From positions 800,001 to 864,000 of the forward strand of contig CAVSHB010000001.1 in the NCBI GenBank assembly GCA_963727775.1: DNA of 64,000 bases, written 5' to 3'. The notes under the pieces are model-generated. The model was not told the DNA's origin, ran no database searches, and saw nothing but the letters and a program-made list of their open reading frames with translations. Positions 82 through 28,274 of the stretch are shown here, piece by piece. This DNA is from an uncultured Nitrospiraceae bacterium (GTDB lineage Bacteria; Nitrospirota; Thermodesulfovibrionia; Thermodesulfovibrionales; SM23-35). The stretch's first letter is position 1. Each line of letters opens with the position of its first letter. Made by a program: the position numbers and the translations under genes.

Positions 82-368
82 TTGTTTCTTCTGACATTGC
101 TCGGAGTGAAAACTTCCGAAAAGAACAGATTCATAATAGAAAGGAACGTACATGATGATTCTCTCTTTTCCTTGCTTGGAGGCAAAAGTCACACTCACCA
201 ATTGTCTTATATGTGTGTTGAGTAGATGAGGAAATCTTGAGTGGTCAGGTCTTTCTGTTTTTAACAGTTAGACATAATGTATTAAACCTGTCCAACCTTA
301 AGGCACGTGGATTAAGCTTTAAGGTGAAAAAACCATAGGCTCAGAGCCACAATTAAGGAGGACAGGTT

Positions 369-1496
369 ATGGATAAGTATAGCAGCAAATATGTAGGAAT
401 GGATGTGCACAAGGAAACGATAGCAGTAGCGATAGCAAAGGAAGGACGCGGGGAGCCGGTTTATTACGGAGAGATACCCAATAACGGTGAGTCAATAAGG
501 AAGCTGGTTAAAAAAGTGGGTTCGAACGGGGAACGAGTATCGTTTTGCTATGAAGCCGGACCATGTGGGTATGAAGTATACCGTCAGTTGATTGATCTTG
601 GTCAGAGGTGTGATGTGGTTGCTCCATCGCTTATCCCAAGGAAATCAGGAGATCGCGTGAAGACAGATCGGAGGGATGCTAACACTCTGACTCGGTTACA
701 TCGTGCGGGAGAACTGACGCCGGTATGGGTTCCGGATAAAGAGCAGGAAGCGATGAGAGATTTAACCCGAGCCCGTGAAGATATGAAGACTATGGAAGGA
801 CATGCCAAACAGCGGCTTGGAGCATTCCTTCTGCGTCATGGAAAGAGATATCCTGGGAGGAGTAAATGGACGCAGGCGCATTTTCGATGGCTGGAAGGGA
901 TAAAGTTTGAGATTCCCGCACAGCAGCTTGTTTTCCAGGAGTATGTTGATACGGTCAAGCAAATGCAAAGGCGCGAGGCTTCACTGGAAGAAGAAATGCG
1001 TCACGCAGTAGAAGGGTGGTCTTTGGCGCCTGTAGTAACAGGTCTGATGGCACTTCGGGGTGTCGACATCATTACAGCAATGACGGTCATTGCCGAACTG
1101 GGCGACATCAGTCGCTTTGAATCTCCTCGTCAGCTCATGGCTCACCTGGGGTTAGTTCCGAGTGAGCACTCAAGCGGCAGTCGTCGCCAGCGAGGCGGGA
1201 TAACCAAAACCGGCAATGGACATGCAAGGCGTGTGCTTATAGAAGCTTCGTGGTGTTATCGATTGCCGGCACGCAAGACGGCTCATTTGCAGCGACGGGC
1301 AGAGAAGACCAGCGAAGCGGTACAAGCCATTGCATGGAAGGCGCAAAAACGGTTATGCAAGAGATATTGGTACTTGATCAATAAGGGGAAACTTCCGGTT
1401 CAAGCATGTACCGCTGTAGCACGTGAACTGAGCGGCTTTATTTGGGCAATTGCATGTGACGTAATGGGAAAGACTAATGCCTGTATCACCAGATAA
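369..1496 (+). CDS. IS110 DEDD recombinase/transposase
   Basis: GMDVHK, YEAGPCG, KTDRRDA (RuvC-like DEDD) and GLVPSEHSSG, ITKTGN (C-terminal Tnp domain with catalytic Ser). Confidence 0.95.
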   Translation: MDKYSSKYVGMDVHKETIAVAIAKEGRGEPVYYGEIPNNGESIRKLVKKVGSNGERVSFCYEAGPCGYEVYRQLIDLGQRCDVVAPSLIPRKSGDRVKTDRRDANTLTRLHRAGELTPVWVPDKEQEAMRDLTRAREDMKTMEGHAKQRLGAFLLRHGKRYPGRSKWTQAHFRWLEGIKFEIPAQQLVFQEYVDTVKQMQRREASLEEEMRHAVEGWSLAPVVTGLMALRGVDIITAMTVIAELGDISRFESPRQLMAHLGLVPSEHSSGSRRQRGGITKTGNGHARRVLIEASWCYRLPARKTAHLQRRAEKTSEAVQAIAWKAQKRLCKRYWYLINKGKLPVQACTAVARELSGFIWAIACDVMGKTNACITR

Positions 1497-1529
1497 GGAT
1501 AAAACGAATTGACGACAGAACGAAACTAT

Positions 1530-1790
1530 CGGTGTTGTCTTCCGGGGCTCCAAAAGAGGTGGAGTGTTTCTCCGCTCCTCCAGACAACGCTATTTATTTG
1601 GAAAATGTGCACTTCGGCCAGGGCAGCAGTCGGTGGGGAGATCCCTCGTACCTACTATGAGGCGCCTGAATATAGGATGACCCTCGATGTTAGACAGAGG
1701 CAGCTCCACGACGAAAATAAGTCATGCGGTACCCAACCCGCGTATATCAGAGTGATCTACCGTCGTTTATCACTGCTGTTCTGCCCTAAG
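1530..1790 (+). ncRNA. Bridge RNA/seekRNA of IS110 copy 1 (predicted)
   Basis: Nested stems (1532-1540/1582-1590; 1620-1630/1772-1787) enclosing loops whose sequences match the element's target and donor sites. RNA ends are estimates. Confidence 0.75.
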
Positions 1791-2065
1791 TTCACACGCT
1801 CAAAGGAGACCATATAAGAGGCAATAAAAATACCCACTTGACAGGTTTAATACATATCAGTAGGTGAAATTGATGTCCGACCTTGCTGAACAATCCTCAC
1901 CACGATCATATCTGTTGCCGATGAATGTTTCTACCAGAATTTCACGCCGGGGAAACGTGACCAACTGCAGGGTGATCTAAACGGGTCACAATATCGGTGT
2001 CACTAAGGTCAGCATAATTCAGGGCGTACTATGCAGTTATGACGAACCGAAATTTTTGAGAGTTA

Positions 2066-7470: not shown

Positions 7471-7473
7471 TAA

Positions 7474-9093
7474 CCCAAAAAGTGCAGTTGACCTAAAATA
7501 ATATCCCCGAAGAAATTCTCCTTTCGTATTAGAATCAATAGGTTTACCCGACCATCAACTCTAAACGAAAGGAGAATAGAAATATGCAGTCAAAATGTAG
7601 CACAAAGATCGAAATAAATAAAGTAAGGATTGGATTTACGGAGAAGAAGATGACGGCATATGGGGGATTCAGTTTATTGGCTGCATTTTTTGAAAAGATC
7701 AAATTGAGAGGAATTTTGCAAGAGGTGATTCCGATCCATGAGAGTTCACCCAATGGAATGGGGATATACAGCAAGGTATTGGCATACATCCTTCTGATCT
7801 ATGCGGGAGGCAGCAGGTTTTCTCATCTACTTTATCTTGGTTGGCAGGAGATTTTCACCGATCTTTTTGCAGTGAAGAGGCTTCCTATCGCCTCGACGAC
7901 ATTGGGCAGGCTTTTCAGGAAGATCAGAAAACTGAAGGAAGTGGAAGAGATGTCGGAGGGATTATGGGGATACTTGAAGAGATTGATCCCCTGGAAAGAG
8001 CTCAAAGAGGACTGGTTGACGTTCGATTCTACAGTCCTTGAGCGATACGGAAAACAGGAGGGAGTCAAGAGGGGATATAACCCGAAGAAGAAGGGCCGTG
8101 GTAGCCACAGCCCGCTTCTGGCATTTCTTAACAGAAACAAGTATGTGATAAATCTTTGGAACCGCCCCGGCAACGTGATGTCATGGAACAACATTATTGG
8201 ATTTTTTGAATCCACATGGCAGAGGATCAACGGTCATATCGATATCAAGGGCATTATTGCAGACAGTGGATTTTATCTTAGGGAGTTCATCGAACTGCTT
8301 GAGAAGAGAGAATTAGTATATATCATAGCTGCTCGCCTATATCGTCCGCTGCAGAGGATAATCTACGCACAACAAAACTGGGCACAGGTAGAAGAAGGGA
8401 TATGGATCACTGAGTTCTTCTTCCAGCATGTAGAGTGGATAATCGACAGGAGGTTTATTGCAGTGCGCCAGGATGTCAAGAAGAGACCGCACGCGATGGG
8501 AAAAGAGTTGTCTCTTTTCGGAGATGAGTTTGATACAGGGCATTATCGTTATAGCGTATGGATAACCAATTCACATGATTCTACATATGAGGTATGGAAG
8601 CAATGCAGGCATAGGGCGAACGATGAGAATACCATCAAGGAACTGAAAGAGGATTTTGCACTCGGCGGGTTCTCGATGAAGTATTTCTACTCAACGGAGG
8701 CGGCTATGCTTATTCGGGTATTCATCTACAATCTGTTTGTCCTGTTCAGGCATCAGATACTCGGTCAAAAAGAAAAGACAGAACGTTTGAAAACCTTACG
8801 GTACAAGTATCTTGTCCTTCCAGCCCAATTAGGATGGGATGGAAGGAAACCTGTATTGCGGATTTCTGTCTTTACGCAGAAAGTACGATCAAAACTGCGC
8901 TACCTCTTTAACCGCGTGGGACAATACTTTCCCCCCAGTTTTGGTAATTGCACTGCATTTAGATAAAAAGAACATAATTTTCAGGAGGTGGAACAAGAAA
9001 CAGCATCAGTATTAGCTTTTATATCGACAAATCAGCCAATGCCTTGATAGGCTTGACTCTATAGGTATGCCTATAGCAAACGCATTTTTCGGG
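7474..9093 (+). mobile_element. IS1380 family element A, copy 1 (1620 bp)
   Basis: Terminal IRs CCCAAAAAGTGCAGTT / CCCGAAAAATGCGTTT (rc); 4-bp target duplication CTAA at 7470-7473 and 9094-9097. Confidence 0.92.
7584..8966 (+). CDS. IS1380 family DDE transposase
   Basis: MTAYGG, TFDSTVLERYGKQEG, IADSGFY, RANDENTIKELK. Confidence 0.93.
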   Translation: MQSKCSTKIEINKVRIGFTEKKMTAYGGFSLLAAFFEKIKLRGILQEVIPIHESSPNGMGIYSKVLAYILLIYAGGSRFSHLLYLGWQEIFTDLFAVKRLPIASTTLGRLFRKIRKLKEVEEMSEGLWGYLKRLIPWKELKEDWLTFDSTVLERYGKQEGVKRGYNPKKKGRGSHSPLLAFLNRNKYVINLWNRPGNVMSWNNIIGFFESTWQRINGHIDIKGIIADSGFYLREFIELLEKRELVYIIAARLYRPLQRIIYAQQNWAQVEEGIWITEFFFQHVEWIIDRRFIAVRQDVKKRPHAMGKELSLFGDEFDTGHYRYSVWITNSHDSTYEVWKQCRHRANDENTIKELKEDFALGGFSMKYFYSTEAAMLIRVFIYNLFVLFRHQILGQKEKTERLKTLRYKYLVLPAQLGWDGRKPVLRISVFTQKVRSKLRYLFNRVGQYFPPSFGNCTAFR

Positions 9094-9469
9094 CTAACAG
9101 GGATATCCTTGGTGAGTTTCTCTCCACCAGAAACACTTAGGAAGATGTGCTTCCTGTCCCCCACAAAGTCCAGAATCTAAAAAATGGTGCGTAGTATAAT
9201 AGATAATTCTCACCGGACGGAAACATCGCCCACCTCGTTTACCGAATATTCAAATTCGATAAAATGCTTTATCTTTCACGCCGCAGAAACCCACTCGCTC
9301 AAAGCAGGAGGGGAGAGACTGGACAAAGTCCTCCCCTCCAAATATTTTTTCCGGCCATATTGACTAAATTGAATTATGTGAGAAAATTATCTATAAGGGA
9401 CTGATTATTAAGAATGTTGATCTCATTTTTTCTTATGACACTCAAAAGAAAAAATAAAGGAGGTATCAA

Positions 9470-11773: not shown

Positions 11774-13225
11774 ATGGCAAATTACGATTTTGACATAGGA
11801 ATTCTCGGTGGTGGAGCTGCCGGACTTACTGTTGCGTCAGGTGCGGCCCAGTTTGGAGCAAAGACCCTTCTCGTTGAAAAAGAACATGAACTGGGAGGTG
11901 ACTGCCTCCATTACGGGTGTGTTCCAAGCAAAACGCTCATTAGGACTGCACATATCTACCATCTTATGAAGAATGCTGAAAAATACGGTCTTCCACGGGC
12001 AGACCTCAAACGAGTGGATTTCCAGGCAATCGCAGGAAGGATTCAATCTGTAATTAGTGCCATACAGGAACATGATTCGAAGGAACGGTTTTGCAAACTT
12101 GGTGCCAGGGTCGAATTCGGCAATGCAAATTTTACAGACGAACATTTAGTCCGGCTGAACGGTGAGATATTTTCTGCAAAGAGGTGGGTTATAGCCACCG
12201 GGTCATCTCCATTTATCCCGCCGATTGAAGGAATTGATAAAACACCCTATATTACGAACAAAGAACTTTTTTTACTGAAAAGTCTTCCGAAATCCATGAT
12301 CGCAATCGGCGGGGGTCCTATATCAATAGAGATGGCTGAGGCATTCAATCGACTGGGGACAAAAGTGACCGTAGTTGAACTTGCGAATCAGATTCTCGGG
12401 GCTTAGGACAAAGACATGGCTGAGCAGCTTATGAATAGTTTGATATCCGAAGGCATAACATTTCATCTGGGCTCTCTGCCCCTCAGCACAAAAGACCTTG
12501 GTAATGAAAAAGAGTTAATATTTAAAAATAACGAAGGCAAAATCTTAAACCTGAGGGCCGAAACCATACTTGTTGCCGTCGGAAGAAAAGCAAATCTCCA
12601 AGATCTCGGGCTGGAAGATATTTCAATGGAATTCGATAAAAAAGGGTTGAAGATAGACGACAGGCTCAGGACAAATCATAAGCACATCTTTGTTGCAGGG
12701 GATGCAACAGGCTCATATCAATTTACCCATGCAGCTGGCTATGAGGGGGGCATTGTGCTCAGCAACGCTATTCTTCATCTACCGAGAAAAGTGGATTATG
12801 CTTATCTGCCGTGGTGTACCTATACAGACCCTGAACTTGCCAGCATCGGGATGAACGAGAAGAGGGCGGCGGCGGCAGGCATATCATATTCTGTCTGGAC
12901 AGAAGAGTTTAAAACCAATGACCGAAGCCTTGCAGAAGGAGAAGAGACAGGGAGAATAAAGCTTCTCCTTGATGACAATGAAAAGCCTATAGGTATTCAG
13001 ATACTGGGACCAAGTGCGGGGGAACTGATCAGTGAATGGGTTGCGGTCATGAACGGGAATGTGAAGCTATCGACTATCGCATCAGCCATTCATCCTTATC
13101 CTACTCTTGGAGAAATCAACAAAAAGGTTGTGGGATCGTTTTTTTCCGGCAAGATCTTTTCCGAAAAGGTGAAAAAAGCTCTGAAATTCTTCTTCAATCT
13201 GAAGGGGAGAGCATGCGGAGCATAA
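11774..13225 (+). pseudogene. Pyridine nucleotide-disulfide oxidoreductase (MerA/lipoamide dehydrogenase class) split by in-frame TAG
   Basis: GGGAAG, GGDCLHYGCVPSK, HPYPT; ORFs 11774-12406 and 12416-13225 share a frame, with TAG at 12404-12406 in ILGA*DKDMA. Confidence 0.85.
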
Positions 13226-13641: not shown

Positions 13642-13670
13642 CTGTGAGAAATTTTTTTTGTCCAGTCCAC
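13642..13670. repeat. Direct repeat, right copy CTGTGAGAAA(T8)GTCCAGTCCAC
   Basis: Matches 2066-2093; preceded by GTGGACT, which is inverted relative to its terminal AGTCCAC. Confidence 0.9.
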
Positions 13671-13984
13671 CTGCTTATAAACACCAAGTAAAATTTAAAA
13701 TTATTGAAGAATACAATCGGGACTAAATACGCCGAAATTTATATATAGAGAGTCCTTCAAATCGAAATAAATAGCTTCCCCGTGAAGAACGGCATTTGTT
13801 TTTTCCGGGAATAAATGGAAGAGAGCACAAATTCATGGATAGCGTTTGTTTCAAGCCATACTGTGCTGTTTCTTTCAGTTGAATCCGAAGAGCACAGATT
13901 GTTGATGCCACCTACTGATATGTATTAAACCTGTCAAGTGGGTATTTTTATTGCCTCTTATATGGTCTCCTTTGAGCGTGTGAA

Positions 13985-14245
13985 CTTAGGGCAGAACAGC
14001 AGTGATAAACGACGGTAGATCACTCTGATATACGCGGGTTGGGTACCGCATGACTTATTTTCGTCGTGGAGCTGCCTCTGTCTAACATCGAGGGTCATCC
14101 TATATTCAGGCGCCTCATAGTAGGTACGAGGGATCTCCCCACCGACTGCTGCCCTGGCCGAAGTGCACATTTTCCAAATAAATAGCGTTGTCTGGAGGAG
14201 CGGAGAAACACTCCACCTCTTTTGGAGCCCCGGAAGACAACACCG
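13985..14245 (-). ncRNA. Bridge RNA/seekRNA of IS110 copy 2 (predicted)
   Basis: Reverse complement of 1530-1790. Confidence 0.75.
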
Positions 14246-14278
14246 ATAGTTTCGTTCTGTCGTCAATTCGTTTTATCC

Positions 14279-15406
14279 TTATCTGGTGATACAGGCATTA
14301 GTCTTTCCCATTACGTCACATGCAATTGCCCAAATAAAGCCGCTCAGTTCACGTGCTACAGCGGTACATGCTTGAACCGGAAGTTTCCCCTTATTGATCA
14401 AGTACCAATATCTCTTGCATAACCGTTTTTGCGCCTTCCATGCAATGGCTTGTACCGCTTCGCTGGTCTTCTCTGCCCGTCGCTGCAAATGAGCCGTCTT
14501 GCGTGCCGGCAATCGATAACACCACGAAGCTTCTATAAGCACACGCCTTGCATGTCCATTGCCGGTTTTGGTTATCCCGCCTCGCTGGCGACGACTGCCG
14601 CTTGAGTGCTCACTCGGAACTAACCCCAGGTGAGCCATGAGCTGACGAGGAGATTCAAAGCGACTGATGTCGCCCAGTTCGGCAATGACCGTCATTGCTG
14701 TAATGATGTCGACACCCCGAAGTGCCATCAGACCTGTTACTACAGGCGCCAAAGACCACCCTTCTACTGCGTGACGCATTTCTTCTTCCAGTGAAGCCTC
14801 GCGCCTTTGCATTTGCTTGACCGTATCAACATACTCCTGGAAAACAAGCTGCTGTGCGGGAATCTCAAACTTTATCCCTTCCAGCCATCGAAAATGCGCC
14901 TGCGTCCATTTACTCCTCCCAGGATATCTCTTTCCATGACGCAGAAGGAATGCTCCAAGCCGCTGTTTGGCATGTCCTTCCATAGTCTTCATATCTTCAC
15001 GGGCTCGGGTTAAATCTCTCATCGCTTCCTGCTCTTTATCCGGAACCCATACCGGCGTCAGTTCTCCCGCACGATGTAACCGAGTCAGAGTGTTAGCATC
15101 CCTCCGATCTGTCTTCACGCGATCTCCTGATTTCCTTGGGATAAGCGATGGAGCAACCACATCACACCTCTGACCAAGATCAATCAACTGACGGTATACT
15201 TCATACCCACATGGTCCGGCTTCATAGCAAAACGATACTCGTTCCCCGTTCGAACCCACTTTTTTAACCAGCTTCCTTATTGACTCACCGTTATTGGGTA
15301 TCTCTCCGTAATAAACCGGCTCCCCGCGTCCTTCCTTTGCTATCGCTACTGCTATCGTTTCCTTGTGCACATCCATTCCTACATATTTGCTGCTATACTT
15401 ATCCAT
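14279..15406 (-). CDS. IS110 DEDD recombinase/transposase
   Basis: Protein identical to 369-1496. Confidence 0.95.
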   Translation of the reverse strand: MDKYSSKYVGMDVHKETIAVAIAKEGRGEPVYYGEIPNNGESIRKLVKKVGSNGERVSFCYEAGPCGYEVYRQLIDLGQRCDVVAPSLIPRKSGDRVKTDRRDANTLTRLHRAGELTPVWVPDKEQEAMRDLTRAREDMKTMEGHAKQRLGAFLLRHGKRYPGRSKWTQAHFRWLEGIKFEIPAQQLVFQEYVDTVKQMQRREASLEEEMRHAVEGWSLAPVVTGLMALRGVDIITAMTVIAELGDISRFESPRQLMAHLGLVPSEHSSGSRRQRGGITKTGNGHARRVLIEASWCYRLPARKTAHLQRRAEKTSEAVQAIAWKAQKRLCKRYWYLINKGKLPVQACTAVARELSGFIWAIACDVMGKTNACITR

Positions 15407-15919
15407 AACCTGTCCTCCTTAATTGTGGCTCTGAGCCTATGGTTTTTTCACCTTAAAGCTTAATCCACGTGCCTTAAGGTTGGACAGGTTTAATACATTA
15501 TGTCTGATATGTGGTTCAAGTTATTGCAACAATGAAGATTTTCGAGAGAACTACGCGTAACGCCAATCATCAGACTGCAGGATTCTACCGCTCGTAATTA
15601 ACATCATCAGGGTATATGTGGGCACTGAATTTTATATTGCCGTAATACCGCAATAGGTACCGATCTTAGATAAACACTCTGCGCTATCGTTCTTGATTAG
15701 CTCCAGATATTGTTTTTCATAATACTTATCGTTCAGCAATATCAAACTTATGTATGCTGTTCGTCTGACCAAATGTAAGAGACATCATGAATAACTGAAC
15801 GAATCAATTCCAAATAATTGGCGAAATCTTCTTAATCACTGTGCCCCCCATGTAAAATAAGGCCGATAGACGAAATGATTATAGTTCTTAATATCATAAC
15901 GTCTCATTAGGGAGAGGTA

Positions 15920-17335: not shown

Positions 17336-18486
17336 TACTCAGGATTCTTAACCAACCTTTTGATTTTTCCGAATAAACCTTTTATATATTGGAGCAAGAC
17401 ATTATAAGAAAGCGATTTCAGGCAATAGGTTGCGGAAATAAAATATAGCATACACGTAATTTTTCCGAGCAAATATGTTCCTAATATATATCATGAAAGA
17501 TTTTCGCTCCAAAAACCCATTTTCCGGCCAGATCCATTCTTTCCCGGTCGTATACGACAACATTGCCTCTCCCTTATATCCCCCTGTAACATCCTTATAA
17601 GCAGCATATGGAATGTTCACGCCGCATTCCGAGGATAAACTATTGCTATGAGTTGTCCTCGGATTCATCTCTATAAGCTTATATCTCCCGTCCCTTTGGT
17701 CTAATTTAAATTCGATAAAAGAAATGCCGTGATAACCGAAGATTCTTAATACCCGAAGACCCATATCGACTATTCGAGGGTTCTTTACACTCACAAAATG
17801 GGTACCGGTGCCAAGATCGGGAGGGTATTGTTTTAATTTCCTGCTAACAAACATGGCCGTTGCTTCATCTTTGTTATTAATATAAGACTGGAACTCATAC
17901 AGTTGCGATGCATCACCTTCTATAAACTCTTGAACAATCATTTTAAATCCATCGGCAGTATACTTTTTAAATTTTTCCATTAATTCCTTGCCGGAGTTAC
18001 ATTGAACAGCCTTAATTCCATATCGAATGAAAAATGCTTCTGAATAAGCAGGCTTGAGAATTAAAGGGAACTTAATGTCATCGGAAAGCGCCCCAATATC
18101 TTTTTCATCCCTTGGATAAAATGTATCGGGCAACGGAATGCCATGCGCAGCAGCTTTTTTATATTGCCTCTCCTTATCTACCATATGTTCTGTTATATCC
18201 CACCCTGAAAATGGAATTTTATAATAAGGCTCAAGCTTATTCCTTGATTTTGCTATCACAGTTACATAAGAATCTTTCGCAGGAAATAAAATTTTAATGC
18301 CTTCGATTCTTTTGCCGATATCCATCAGAAATTCCGTAAGATCAAATTCTGAATGTAATGGATTAGGGCAAACAACGCTTTCTGAGACAAACTTCGAATG
18401 AAATCCTATTGCATATGGATTATGGTCTATTGCAAGTATTGAGATATCCTTCCCTCCAAGACTTCTTATAATTCCTAACCCATTAA

Positions 18487-20106
18487 CCCGAAAAATGCGT
18501 TTGCTATAGGCATACCTATAGAGTCAAGCCTATCAAGGCATTGGCTGATTTGTCGATATAAAAGCTAATACTGATGCTGTTTCTTGTTCCACCTCCTGAA
18601 AATTATGTTCTTTTTATCTAAATGCAGTGCAATTACCAAAACTGGGTGGAAAGTATTGTCCCACGCGGTTAAAGAGGTAGCGCAGTTTTGATCGTACTTT
18701 CTGCGTAAAGACAGAAATCCGCAATACAGGTTTCCTTCCATCCCATCCTAATTGGGCTGGAAGGACAAGATACTTGTACCGTAAGGTTTTCAAACGTTCT
18801 GTCTTTTCTTTTTGACCGAGTATCTGATGCCTGAACAGGACAAACAGATTGTAGATGAATACCCGAATAAGCATAGCCGCCTCCGTTGAGTAGAAATACT
18901 TCATCGAGAACCCGCCGAGTGCAAAATCCTCTTTCAGTTCCTTGATGGTATTCTCATCGTTCGCCCTATGCCTGCATTGCTTCCATACCTCATATGTAGA
19001 ATCATGTGAATTGGTTATCCATACGCTATAACGATAATGCCCTGTATCAAACTCATCTCCGAAAAGAGACAACTCTTTTCCCATCGCGTGCGGTCTCTTC
19101 TTGACATCCTGGCGCACTGCAATAAACCTCCTGTCGATTATCCACTCTACATGCTGGAAGAAGAACTCAGTGATCCATATCCCTTCTTCTACCTGTGCCC
19201 AGTTTTGTTGTGCGTAGATTATCCTCTGCAGCGGACGATATAGGCGAGCAGCTATGATATATACTAATTCTCTCTTCTCAAGCAGTTCGATGAACTCCCT
19301 AAGATAAAATCCACTGTCTGCAATAATGCCCTTGATATCGATATGACCGTTGATCCTCTGCCATGTGGATTCAAAAAATCCAATAATGTTGTTCCATGAC
19401 ATCACGTTGCCGGGGCGGTTCCAAAGATTTATCACATACTTGTTTCTGTTAAGAAATGCCAGAAGCGGGCTGTGGCTACCACGGCCCTTCTTCTTCGGGT
19501 TATATCCCCTCTTGACTCCCTCCTGTTTTCCGTATCGCTCAAGGACTGTAGAATCGAACGTCAACCAGTCCTCTTTGAGCTCTTTCCAGGGGATCAATCT
19601 CTTCAAGTATCCCCATAATCCCTCCGACATCTCTTCCACTTCCTTCAGTTTTCTGATCTTCCTGAAAAGCCTGCCCAATGTCGTCGAGGCGATAGGAAGC
19701 CTCTTCACTGCAAAAAGATCGGTGAAAATCTCCTGCCAACCAAGATAAAGTAGATGAGAAAACCTGCTGCCTCCCGCATAGATCAGAAGGATGTATGCCA
19801 ATACCTTGCTGTATATCCCCATTCCATTGGGTGAACTCTCATGGATCGGAATCACCTCTTGCAAAATTCCTCTCAATTTGATCTTTTCAAAAAATGCAGC
19901 CAATAAACTGAATCCCCCATATGCCGTCATCTTCTTCTCCGTAAATCCAATCCTTACTTTATTTATTTCGATCTTTGTGCTACATTTTGACTGCATATTT
20001 CTATTCTCCTTTCGTTTAGAGTTGATGGTCGGGTAAACCTATTGATTCTAATACGAAAGGAGAATTTCTTCGGGGATATTATTTTAGGTCAACTGCACTT
20101 TTTGGG
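18487..20106 (-). mobile_element. IS1380 family element A, copy 2 (1620 bp)
   Basis: Same IRs as copy 1; TTAA duplication at 18483-18486 and 20107-20110. Confidence 0.92.
18614..19996 (-). CDS. IS1380 family DDE transposase
   Basis: Protein identical to 7584-8966. Confidence 0.93.
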   Translation of the reverse strand: MQSKCSTKIEINKVRIGFTEKKMTAYGGFSLLAAFFEKIKLRGILQEVIPIHESSPNGMGIYSKVLAYILLIYAGGSRFSHLLYLGWQEIFTDLFAVKRLPIASTTLGRLFRKIRKLKEVEEMSEGLWGYLKRLIPWKELKEDWLTFDSTVLERYGKQEGVKRGYNPKKKGRGSHSPLLAFLNRNKYVINLWNRPGNVMSWNNIIGFFESTWQRINGHIDIKGIIADSGFYLREFIELLEKRELVYIIAARLYRPLQRIIYAQQNWAQVEEGIWITEFFFQHVEWIIDRRFIAVRQDVKKRPHAMGKELSLFGDEFDTGHYRYSVWITNSHDSTYEVWKQCRHRANDENTIKELKEDFALGGFSMKYFYSTEAAMLIRVFIYNLFVLFRHQILGQKEKTERLKTLRYKYLVLPAQLGWDGRKPVLRISVFTQKVRSKLRYLFNRVGQYFPPSFGNCTAFR

Positions 20107-20254
20107 TTAACATCGCAGCCGAGAACAATCGCCCAATGATTTGAATTCATATTTCAGTCTGCCCTTCGTCCAAGGAGAAAGCCCTCATGAACCAGCTTAA
20201 GCCTACAGGTCTCAGAATCGATGACATTCTGCCGCCATGCGTCCGGATTCACGA

Positions 20255-24680: not shown

Positions 24681-24857
24681 GCAGGTCTTTGTTCCACCTA
24701 CACATAAACGTTTTCAGGAGTTCCAAAATTTTATCTCTTTCTTCATCAACTCCACAAAATGAACAAACTTCATCTGATGCAAAGTACATTTGAAAACACT
24801 CAGAATAAAAGTTGATGTAATTTGACAATTACCATTTGAAAGAGAGATTTTCTGTGT

Positions 24858-26117: not shown

Positions 26118-28274
26118 TTATGCTTTTCCAAGCCATTTGTTTTTTCTCAGAATAAACACTCCCGCTGAAATAGCTAGAATGGCAATCAACGCTATCATGT
26201 TCTCATTGGCTCCCGTTGAATATCCACTACCACTACCACCGGAATATGGATAACCAACCCCAAAAGGTGAAAGTGATGTAACTTGTCCTGTAATTGTATT
26301 GGCAGAAGTATTAACAGAGATGGTTACATCTCTCCATGCGCCACTTTCCCAATGGAAAAGTTTTAGGCTATTCTCTGAACCCTGGATTGCTGATTCACTG
26401 TATGGAACGGTAACCGTGATTGTACCAGTATAGGTTGCAGTAGTTGTGAGGTCAAAGCAACTGCCTGCAAATCTATAACCTGAAGGTGGACCCGCACATG
26501 ATTCCGCTGCTACTGAAGTCGTGCCTGAAGCGGTTACGTTTGAGAAAGTTACCTGTGTGCCGCTTCCCGGATTCACTGTTATGCTTGATCCCGTTTGAGT
26601 ATTATCTATCGCAAAGCTGGCAGTTACCGTGATATTGCCTGCAACATTGGTGTCTGTCCTTGGGTTGGCTGTAGAAGAATCACTCCATTGTACAAAGTGG
26701 TAGCCGGTATTCGCAACAGCGGTGACTGCCGTGCCTGAGGCTCCATAATTGACTGTCTGAGGAGTCGTTCCGCTGATTGATCCATTGGCCCCGGCATTGT
26801 AGGTTAGGGTATAAGTGTTGATCGCAAAGGTTGCGCTTACCGAGCAGTCCGCTGTAACGGCATCAGTGGTATAGGTATACGTATTAACAGCATTGCTTGT
26901 GTTGTTGTATGTTGTCGCACCACAGGTCGATGTCACGCCTGCCACATGGTAGCCGGTGTTCGCGTTAAACTTGAAACTCGTGGTTGAGCCGCTGCTTACT
27001 GTCTGCGGTGACGTGGTCGTCCCGTCAAGCGTGCCGTTTGATCCGGCGGTTGCCGAAACCGCGAAGGCTGATGAAATCTTCCGGATTTTGTTATTCCTGG
27101 TATCAGCCACATATAGGCTTGTGCCGTCCGTGGTTATGTCGTTAGGATTATAGAACCTTGCAGCATTCCCTGTGCCGTCGGTGTCGCTGTATGCTGTTGA
27201 GCCTTGGGCCGGGCCTGCCAGCGTAGTGACCACGCCTGTCGTGATCACGATCTGCCGGATTTTGTTATTATAGGCATCAGCCACATAAAGGTTTGTACCG
27301 TCCGTGGTTATGCCGCTAGGAATATAGAACCTTGCAGCATTTCCTGTGCCGTCGGTGTCGCCGGATGCTCTTGAGCCCTGGGCCGGGCCTGCCAGCGTAG
27401 TGACCACGCCTGTCGTGATCACGATCTGCCGGATTTTGTTATTAAAGTAATCAGCCACATAAAGGTTTGTACCGTCCGTGGTTATGCCGCTAGGAATATA
27501 GAACCTTGCAGCATTTCCTGTGCCGTCGGTGTCGCCGGATGTTGTTGAGCCTTGGGCCGGGCCTGCCAGCGTAGTGACAGCGCCTGTAGCAATCACGATC
27601 TTCCGGATTTTGTTATTGTTGCTATCAGCCACATAAAGGTTTGTGCCGTCCGTGGTTATGCCGTTAGGATTATAGAACCTTGCAGCATTTCCTGTGTCGT
27701 CGGTATCGCCGGATGTTGTTGAGCCTTGGGCCGGGCCTGCCAGCGTAGTGACAGCGCCTGTAGCAATCACGATCTTCCGGATTTTGTTATTATTGCTATC
27801 AGCCACATAAAGGTTTGTGCCGTCCGTGGTTATGCTGGAAGGATTTTTGAACCTTGCAGCATTTCCTGTGTCGTCGGTGTCGCCGGATACTGTTGAGCCT
27901 TGGGCCGGGCCTGCCAGCGTAGTGACAGCGCCTGTAGCAATCACGATCTTCCGGATTTTGTTATTATTGTTATCAGCCACATAAAGGTTTGTGCCGTCCG
28001 TGGTTATGCCATAAGGATAATTGAACCTTGCAGCATTTCCTGTGCCGTCGGTGTCGCTGGATGCTCTTGAGCCCTGGGCCGGGCCTGCAAAGGTGGTCAC
28101 TGCTGCGGGTACCAAATTGAGCGGTGTCCCCTGAATCGCACCGCCCATAAGAGGATGATTAGCAAATGTAGCGCCCACCGAAAACACCAGCAGAACCAGC
28201 GCGATCAATGAGATTGTCATACACGCCATTGACTTGGCATGGCTCGCCGTTGTCCCTTTCTGTGAGTCGTGCAT
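26118..28274 (-). CDS. Exported NHL-repeat beta-propeller protein with InlB-B-like repeats and C-terminal sorting signal
   Basis: Six GITTDGTNLYVAD..NNKIR repeats; ANTGYH repeats; tail YSTGANEN + hydrophobic helix + RKNK; ATG 28274 follows TAAGGAGG. Confidence 0.85.
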   Translation of the reverse strand: MHDSQKGTTASHAKSMACMTISLIALVLLVFSVGATFANHPLMGGAIQGTPLNLVPAAVTTFAGPAQGSRASSDTDGTGNAARFNYPYGITTDGTNLYVADNNNNKIRKIVIATGAVTTLAGPAQGSTVSGDTDDTGNAARFKNPSSITTDGTNLYVADSNNNKIRKIVIATGAVTTLAGPAQGSTTSGDTDDTGNAARFYNPNGITTDGTNLYVADSNNNKIRKIVIATGAVTTLAGPAQGSTTSGDTDGTGNAARFYIPSGITTDGTNLYVADYFNNKIRQIVITTGVVTTLAGPAQGSRASGDTDGTGNAARFYIPSGITTDGTNLYVADAYNNKIRQIVITTGVVTTLAGPAQGSTAYSDTDGTGNAARFYNPNDITTDGTSLYVADTRNNKIRKISSAFAVSATAGSNGTLDGTTTSPQTVSSGSTTSFKFNANTGYHVAGVTSTCGATTYNNTSNAVNTYTYTTDAVTADCSVSATFAINTYTLTYNAGANGSISGTTPQTVNYGASGTAVTAVANTGYHFVQWSDSSTANPRTDTNVAGNITVTASFAIDNTQTGSSITVNPGSGTQVTFSNVTASGTTSVAAESCAGPPSGYRFAGSCFDLTTTATYTGTITVTVPYSESAIQGSENSLKLFHWESGAWRDVTISVNTSANTITGQVTSLSPFGVGYPYSGGSGSGYSTGANENMIALIAILAISAGVFILRKNKWLGKA
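27076..28100 (-). repeat. Six 174-bp intragenic tandem repeats
   Basis: GGGCCTGC anchor at 27211, 27385, 27559, 27733, 27907, 28081. Confidence 0.92.

Follow-up and report, generated by a model that had tools for sequence, protein, structure and literature searches.

Two copies of an insertion sequence lie in opposite orientations in the window (the whole 64,000-nt stretch of DNA analysed here), both next to the hexamer CACCTA. The locus raises the question whether the non-coding 3' end of the element encodes an RNA that directs it to this target, and how the unusual right-hand flank of the second copy, GATATGT, is to be explained.

The element and its recombinase

The element, its two copies and its recombinase are defined by the following features.

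270-1860, plus strand: IS1111-type element, copy 1; the core, AG or on the minus strand CT, occupies 270-271 and 1859-1860, and the ends are kept in homologues
13915-15505, minus strand: copy 2, inverted and with the same sequence as copy 1; predicted bridge RNA at about 13985-14159
277-292, plus strand: 16-nt sub-terminal inverted repeat on the left, with 7 nt between it and the end of the element
1840-1855, plus strand: 16-nt sub-terminal inverted repeat on the right, with 3 nt between it and the core
369-1496, plus strand: intact DEDD recombinase, 375 aa; D12, E62, D100, D103 and S269 align with the catalytic positions of IS621
273-278, plus strand: CATAAT, predicted -10 box of a putative circle-junction promoter
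1838-1843, plus strand: TTGACA, predicted -35 box of the same putative promoter, with CATAAT following after 18 nt in the circle

The recombinase matches the Pfam families PF01548 and PF02371 and the NCBIfam model NF033542 (261.7 bits, cut-off 140), and combines a DEDD RuvC-like domain with a Tnp domain carrying a catalytic serine, the arrangement of IS110/IS1111 bridge recombinases. The nearest named relatives of the transposase are ISCARN28 and ISSfr2, and among the matches listed the closest are Nitrospirota records. A 2-nt core, AG/CT, is found at both ends of the element without target duplication, with CT on the strand opposite the transposase gene (tnp) as originally predicted, and it is CT or TT in all parsed homologues. 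The non-coding ends measure 99 nt on the left and 364 nt on the right, 3' of tnp, where the complement of the top target strand comes ahead of the match to the bottom strand (an order read from the sequence). Both this arrangement and the extensions outside the sub-terminal repeats, 7 bp on the left and 3 bp on the right, are those of the IS1111 group. These characters place the element among the IS1111-type bridge recombinases, in the clade of ISCARN28.

When the flanks of all copies in the 3.43-Mb genome were tabulated, only copies 1 and 2 were found, both with CACCTA as left target and 100% identical across the element and the common 6-nt flank. This identity agrees with the recent duplication put forward in the original prediction, and the element appears to have been recently active. 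Rfam matched nothing up to E=1 across positions 200-2000, and a scan for linear promoters and terminators gave two weak promoters, against 1.7 by chance, and no terminators. No convincing reading frame crossed the rejoined flanks in any of the four pairings, and neither a circle junction nor the exact empty allele of either insertion was found in the best-matching public DNA runs (0.24-0.35 of words shared, short contigs). Among the public runs listed as sharing its sequence none was of RNA.

Guides and fold of the predicted bridge RNA

The following parts of a putative bridge RNA can be placed in the 3' end of copy 1.

1616-1790, plus strand: predicted bridge RNA with approximate ends, made up of an outer stem, a target-binding loop and a donor-binding multi-loop
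1637-1707, plus strand: target-binding domain, with stems 1637-40/1704-07 and 1644-47/1697-1700 and inner hairpin 1659-1685
1649-1656, plus strand: left target guide TACCTACT, 1650-1654 by covariation, 1655-1656 matching the core, 1649 unsupported
1687-1693, plus strand: right target guide ATGTTAG, 1689-1691 by covariation, 1692-1693 pairing with the core, 1687-1688 unsupported
1694-1695, plus strand: AC, putative place of the target-loop handshake guide (by analogy with PMC11208158), complementary to donor positions 7 and 6
1709-1765, plus strand: donor-binding multi-loop, closed by CGACG/CGTCG
1718-1723, plus strand: left donor guide TAAGTC, 5/6 to the left donor arm plus the first core base
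1742-1750, plus strand: right donor guide GTATATCAG, with seven Watson-Crick and two wobble pairs possible with the core plus right donor arm

A homologue set was assembled from 79 genome and 80 metagenome loci (the best 80 per search) together with further loci from relatives, and 214 loci plus the two window copies were parsed into 110 RNA rows; left out were three own-genome loci and L106, L149, L201 and L202, four rows that were truncated or wrongly parsed. Covariation was counted without the window copies on 65 distinct left-target sites (42 guides) and 67 right-target sites (33 guides) and compared with 5000 guide-level shuffles, identical guides being collapsed and phylogeny uncorrected. 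The guides vary freely within close kin. The left target guide equals the flank at positions -1 to -5 in 59, 60, 61, 48 and 39 of the 65 homologous sites, and the right target guide pairs with the flank at +1 to +3 in 64, 64 and 42 of the 67, each with 0/5000 shuffles. No covariation was seen at -6 (20/65 sites, 517/5000 shuffles), at +4 (17/67 sites, 1852/5000 shuffles) or, likewise, at +5 (8/67). The supported register is 1650-1656 and 1689-1693, in a target loop whose two guides track the two halves of the target, as in bridge recombinases.

The donor loop likewise holds two guides matching the ends of the element, again as in bridge recombinases. The right donor guide can pair by complementarity with the right end and hardly varies in the homologues, while the left one shows a compensatory change in L155 and, over 16 distinct pairs, covaries at one variable position in 13/16 (1/5000 shuffles) and weakly at two more. 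It halts at the first core base, as described for IS621 (PMC11208158). The donor-loop handshake base did not track the target in the homologue set, which counts against the model.

All four guides had been placed and identified correctly in the original prediction (the target guides by covariation, the right donor guide by complementarity, the left one partly covarying), and its motifs TACCTACT (1649-1656), ATGTTAG (1687-1693), ATAAGTC (1717-1723) and TATATCAG (1743-1750) are exact, as is GACG (1710-1713)/CGTC (1761-1764), which lies within the CGACG/CGTCG closing the donor multi-loop. Recombinase families, covariation of guides with targets (-5 to -1 and +1 to +3) and fold agree on an IS1111-type bridge RNA in the 3' end. 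Two details find no support: the U:G pair at 1649 faces position -6, and the seven-pair reading of ATGTTAG on CTGATAT extends to +4 and +5, all without covariation.

A single-sequence fold of the end gave a z of -2.8, and its minimum-energy form pairs the two target guides with each other. In the consensus of 38 non-redundant homologous ends the target guides lie in an open loop with two short closing stems, and a 28-pair model of this consensus has 95% of 1054 cells paired, against 35-48% in slid controls, with 0/500 shuffles on four of five measures and 24/500 on the fifth. Two-sided changes occur at 9/28 pairs, mostly in the inner target hairpin; most of the remaining pairs are invariant and give little information. 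In the outer stem the own partner beats the median foreign partner in 36/38 ends. The putative bridge RNA fold has compensatory support, and the loop geometry is best taken as a model, since one consensus helix (1746-48/1754-56) overlaps the right donor guide, which counts against it, and since the minimum-energy fold pairs the target guides.

Variation among the homologues also touches the core. Elements with TT at the guide core have TT at the target-side junction (L045, L047, L048, L054, L059, L061, L098, L034-L036). In two of these rows, L054 and L098, CT is found at the donor-side junction and in the right donor guide, so that the two junctions differ and show which strand gave each core, a pattern that would follow from each top strand bringing along its own core. 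In one sub-clade (L004-L006, L100-L102, L105, L118, L190, L194, L195, L200) the left guide has moved by one base, and the target is a repeat of GTCATTCCGG type that is probably a REP-like palindrome. Two loci, L201 (G005:C1:312862-313034) and L202 (G049:C5:40149-40349), are right-end remnants that keep the donor loop and have lost the target loop wholly or partly; L202 still terminates at a TAGGTG box. In one genome L024, L027 and L028 differ from L026 by an extra ~190 nt between transposase stop and RNA, and longer right ends occur in several other relatives too.

The RNA-guided mechanism is known and an RNA of this clade has already been predicted; the element adds one more natural example. 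Bridge RNAs 3' of the gene were predicted in 93% of IS1111 elements, many with their donor guides in a multi-loop (Durrant 2024, PMC11208160), and ISCARN28, of the IS1111 group, is one of the six drawn there (Fig. 6d/Extended Data Fig. 10c). ISCARN28 resembles the present element in transposase clade (~58/74 residues, ~78%, counted by eye, in the Tnp-domain row of Supplementary Table 1 of that paper) and in having a 3' bridge RNA; the donor guides here sit in a multi-loop, as in many IS1111 elements. The passages on ISCARN28 in PMC11208160 mention neither a repeated-site context nor a junction scar. The IS1111-family seekRNA elements ISEc11, ISKpn4, ISPst6 and ISPa11, as characterised by Siddiquee (2024, PMC11187229), share the 7-bp left and 3-bp right extensions, a non-coding region 3' of tnp with top-strand complement and then bottom-strand match, and a repeated host site as target; the repeats are 16 bp here, whereas theirs are usually 11-13. 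IS621/ISCro4, as described (PMC11208160, PMC11208158; PDB 8wt6, 9t56), have the same DEDD+Ser active site, CT core and order of the four guides, a short right target guide, a left donor guide ending at the first core base and the handshake position. Their proteins are distant from the present one (E 1e-5 to 1e-7), and the present element differs from them in having the RNA 3' of tnp, the CT core opposite the tnp strand and a donor multi-loop. The guide register of 5+2+3 is well resolved and could be reprogrammed.

A dispersed site of about 70 bp

Both copies split a repeated site of about 70 bp, reading roughly AATCWTCA, 28 nt, TNGTAGGTG. In the window it is represented at and beyond copy 1 by the following features.

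212-269, plus strand: left half of the site split by copy 1; the rejoined site scores 35.6-37.7 bits, threshold 19.2
1861-1866, plus strand: TAGGTG box of the site, the left target CACCTA on the minus strand
24687-24760, minus strand: unoccupied copy of the site, core not CT

The strict motif occurs 6 times in the genome against 0.07 expected, and the upstream box stands at a spacer of 28 from 14 of the 76 TNGTAGGTG words, compared with 0-3 at twelve other spacers. With an iterated profile 53 IS-free copies scored above the best reversed-genome score; by simple ORF calling 49 of them lie outside long reading frames and 44 after the 3' end of a gene. In other genomes of the phylum the strict motif was found in 2/300, with one match each, so that among these the strict form is expanded in the present genome only.

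The association with this site extends to homologues. All five distinct two-ended insertions of elements with a TACCTAC guide are in such sites; the left half scores 7.4-20.5 bits in them, whereas 61 other insertions reach 5.3 at most. The sister-element guides TACCGACT and AACCTCCT spell the site variants TCGGTG and GAGGTG; L111 is inserted in such a site, and others score low. The target motif YACCTA-CT-RAY proposed earlier is not supported: C is found at -6 in 6/6 distinct insertions with a TACCTAC guide, and the G at +1 belongs to the donor-arm-like tract beside copy 2. The constant C is explained by the repeated site that these elements target, -6 not tracking the guide.

In several respects the site behaves like a recombination site. 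Among the 32 sites with a paralogous segment the alignment ends at -5 to +8 of the box in 19, against a mean of 1.7 per equal bin, a count in which reciprocal pairs are included twice and to which the conserved box itself attracts ends. Relatives of flank R2 occur in 23/56 genomes of the family; twelve of them extend into its first 20 bases, and 11 of these start at the box, with left sides mostly unrelated. Segments of 255 bp are also seen as units between two direct copies of the site (C1:1047732-1047985, C3:263799-264054).

Known types of repeated site were compared with it. An integron attC was rejected: the mean fold z over the 53 sites is -0.3 to -0.6, the box is GTAGGTG and lacks the palindromic attC form with GTT/AAC ends, no TIGR02249 match exceeded the cut-off and no intact integron integrase was found. 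The same z values speak against a hairpin of any kind. Neither is it the end of an IS91 element (Y2-transposase), being near only 2/5 Y2 loci and missing from a third, 99.8% identical Y2 copy. The site also differs from the CTTCCTG promoter module: of 37 matches to that motif none falls on a copy of the site, and two are about 82 bp distant. An inverted partner box within 300 bp was present at 5/53 sites, compared with 5% at random, and of 8 matches to a 17-nt site word in viral contigs none extends as a site. In being neither attC nor REP and having no hairpin the target differs from those described for the seekRNA elements (PMC11187229), and the ~70-bp host site extends the list of targets of these elements beyond attC, REP and transposon ends. 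Separately, an element with a tyrosine recombinase and an IS91-type transposase is present in three copies (C3:339427-342025, C2:571289-573890, C1:20940-23533), two of which start at a copy of the ~70-bp site and one of which does not.

The right junction of copy 2

The flanks of copy 2 are as follows.

13909-13914, plus strand: CACCTA, left target of copy 2
15506-15512, plus strand: GATATGT, equal to the right donor arm of the element, in the place of a 9-nt tract of IS-free relatives
15513-15563, minus strand: left half of the ~70-bp site split by copy 2, with 2 nt missing from the usual register

The original prediction took CACCTA-CT-GATAT as the empty target of copy 2 and inferred an apparent tolerance of wobble pairs. 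The rejoined flanks do read so, but they are probably not the pre-insertion site. GATATGT equals the right donor arm over 7 nt, CT being followed by GATATGT once per ~9,300, an identity that was spotted after the fact. Of 69 right-target flanks only that of copy 2 starts with GAT. A search with the 28 bases past the tract in 317 genomes of the order gave 13 IS-free relatives in 10 other genomes, which are homologous sites and not the direct ancestor of site 2. Their tract is 9 nt long in 12 and 10 nt in one, never 7, with the consensus AAYCCNCGT: A comes first in 12/13 (G in one), C is third-last in 13/13 and most end in GT. The tract at copy 2 has 7 nt, G first, T at the third-last place and a GT end; spacers 1-2 nt short do occur elsewhere (3 and 1 of 76; L002). 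A contig of depth 2.1 from run X5 agrees with 15513-15550 apart from 3 differences and then reads on, IS-free, as CACCTA-CT-AATCCTCGC, and the paralogue at C1:1055137 in the same genome has the same nine bases. Most likely, to judge from these comparisons, the GATATGT flank is a scar of the donor arm and not a target read by wobble, and the pre-insertion target was likely CACCTA-CT-AAY, a sequence that needs no wobble to fit the guide at +1 and +2.

A natural CACCTA-CT-GATAT site, to which the right target guide paired through two G:U/G:T wobbles in a wobble-tolerant system, is decidedly unlikely. On paper all five bases after the core find a partner, the GT that ends the tract agrees with the site consensus, and non-canonical guide pairs are described for IS621 (PMC11208158). 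A wobble at +1 is however seen at copy 2 only, the 52 homologous sites at which the guide base for +1 is G or U all being Watson-Crick; wobbles are not enriched at +3 either (1.8 vs 4.3 shuffled), +4 and +5 are unguided, none of the 53 IS-free sites of the genome has G at +1, and tract length and invariant C are at odds with 13/13 relatives. The junction warns against drawing wobble rules from rejoined flanks.

It is also decidedly unlikely that the element met a pre-existing hybrid of left target and right donor sequence, chosen by a half-match or across the two loops, with the left target guide reading one arm and the right donor guide the other. Half-site matches are reported to be enough for IS621 insertion, those to the right donor only being the commonest half-match class (10.64898/2026.08.31.748434), and substrates of left target and right donor to be bound across both loops (PMC13626964). 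In an RNA:RNA proxy the right donor guide also beats the target guide on the flank (-7.1 vs -3.3 kcal/mol). The chance expectation of such a hybrid in this genome is nevertheless ~0.004 (41 CACCTACT words, of which two are the junctions of the element itself, x 1.1e-4), so that the hybrid itself needs an origin, and the relatives have a different, longer tract. A hybrid is plausible only as a second step, after a scar from an earlier copy. Inversions and tandem duplications at IS110 loci, and the use of half-match donor look-alikes, are described in two preprints (10.64898/2026.08.31.748434, 10.64898/2026.08.14.744561), and the one-sided donor matches at natural IS110 boundaries reported there resemble copy 2. 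Such recombination uses pre-existing look-alikes, whereas at copy 2 donor bases appear to replace target bases. A limited literature search gave nothing on the ~70-bp site or on a replacement of target by donor bases; the supplements of the preprints may hold comparable junctions.

An assembly error at the 1.6-kb repeats, affecting the copy-2 junction or the arrangement of the copies and leaving the guides real, is most improbable. The inverted repeats are identical and no public run spans the locus, but the assembly consists of four gap-free contigs, the tract ends on the consensus GT, past which the flank is an ordinary half of the site, and the result on the guides is independent of the assembly.

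We favour, with a probability of roughly 0.8, the reading in which the guides in the 3' end belong to a predicted bridge RNA that likely steers the element to CACCTA-CT-AAY in the ~70-bp site, the GATATGT beside copy 2 likely being a leftover of the right end; the presence of four unoccupied CACCTA-CT-A sites in the genome counts against it. In this mechanism the ends would join in a circle and form TTGACA-18-CATAAT (as read from the sequence), a promoter presumed active from IS1111/IS621. The RNA, whose expression is predicted, would fold into a target loop and a donor multi-loop, as the compensatory changes indicate. As the covariation indicates, its 1650-1656 would pair across the CT core with one strand of the target and its 1689-1693 with the opposite strand, while the donor loop would bind the circle junction (complementarity for the right guide, partial covariation for the left). 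Strand exchange at the core would then insert the element without duplication, by analogy with the IS621 structures. At copy 2 five donor-arm bases, GATAT, would have taken the place of about seven site bases, joined at the GT common to both; this replacement is suggested by the relatives, and its route may have been an aberrant insertion or the collapse of a tandem dimer.

The scar may have arisen by one aberrant insertion, by tandem-dimer collapse or by deletion of an earlier copy followed by re-insertion. An RNA-templated origin was rejected, as copying of the guide would yield AC, not GT, at the last two places. Only tentatively can it be proposed that a Nitrospirota sub-clade of IS1111 has been reprogrammed to the TAGGTG, TCGGTG and GAGGTG variants of an undescribed, non-palindromic, segment-shuffling ~70-bp site and that copy 2 stems from an aberrant insertion that, in a single step, overwrote the target with donor-arm DNA at a 2-nt microhomology. 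If true, this type of scar would be unexpected from 'scarless' bridge recombination and would bear on the fidelity of editors, and replacement of target by donor bases may be a rare class of by-product for bridge editors.

Comparison of the flanks of the two copies with 75 sites showed the best match of flank L1 beside a half of R2 type and that of L2 beside one of R1 type, with narrow margins (74 vs 70.5; 51.5 vs 46.5), and 13 L2-type halves bear unrelated right halves; an inversion of the 12-kb segment between the copies is possible only. A 29-nt direct repeat (2066-2093, 13642-13670) bounds a fur-katG-msrB-msrA block of stress genes, and a third copy of it (C3:558766-558797) adjoins a copy of the ~70-bp site; the fur-katG block is found with 88% identity from C1:1037804. 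A flavoprotein reductase at 11774-13225, presumably of the mercuric-reductase/dihydrolipoamide-dehydrogenase type by its motifs, is broken into two consecutive frames. A second identical inverted IS pair (DDE_Tnp_1_4, 460 aa; 7471-9097 and 18483-20109) is interleaved with the IS1111 pair, and positions 27076-28071 hold a tandem array with a period of 174 nt and ~90% identity among its copies.
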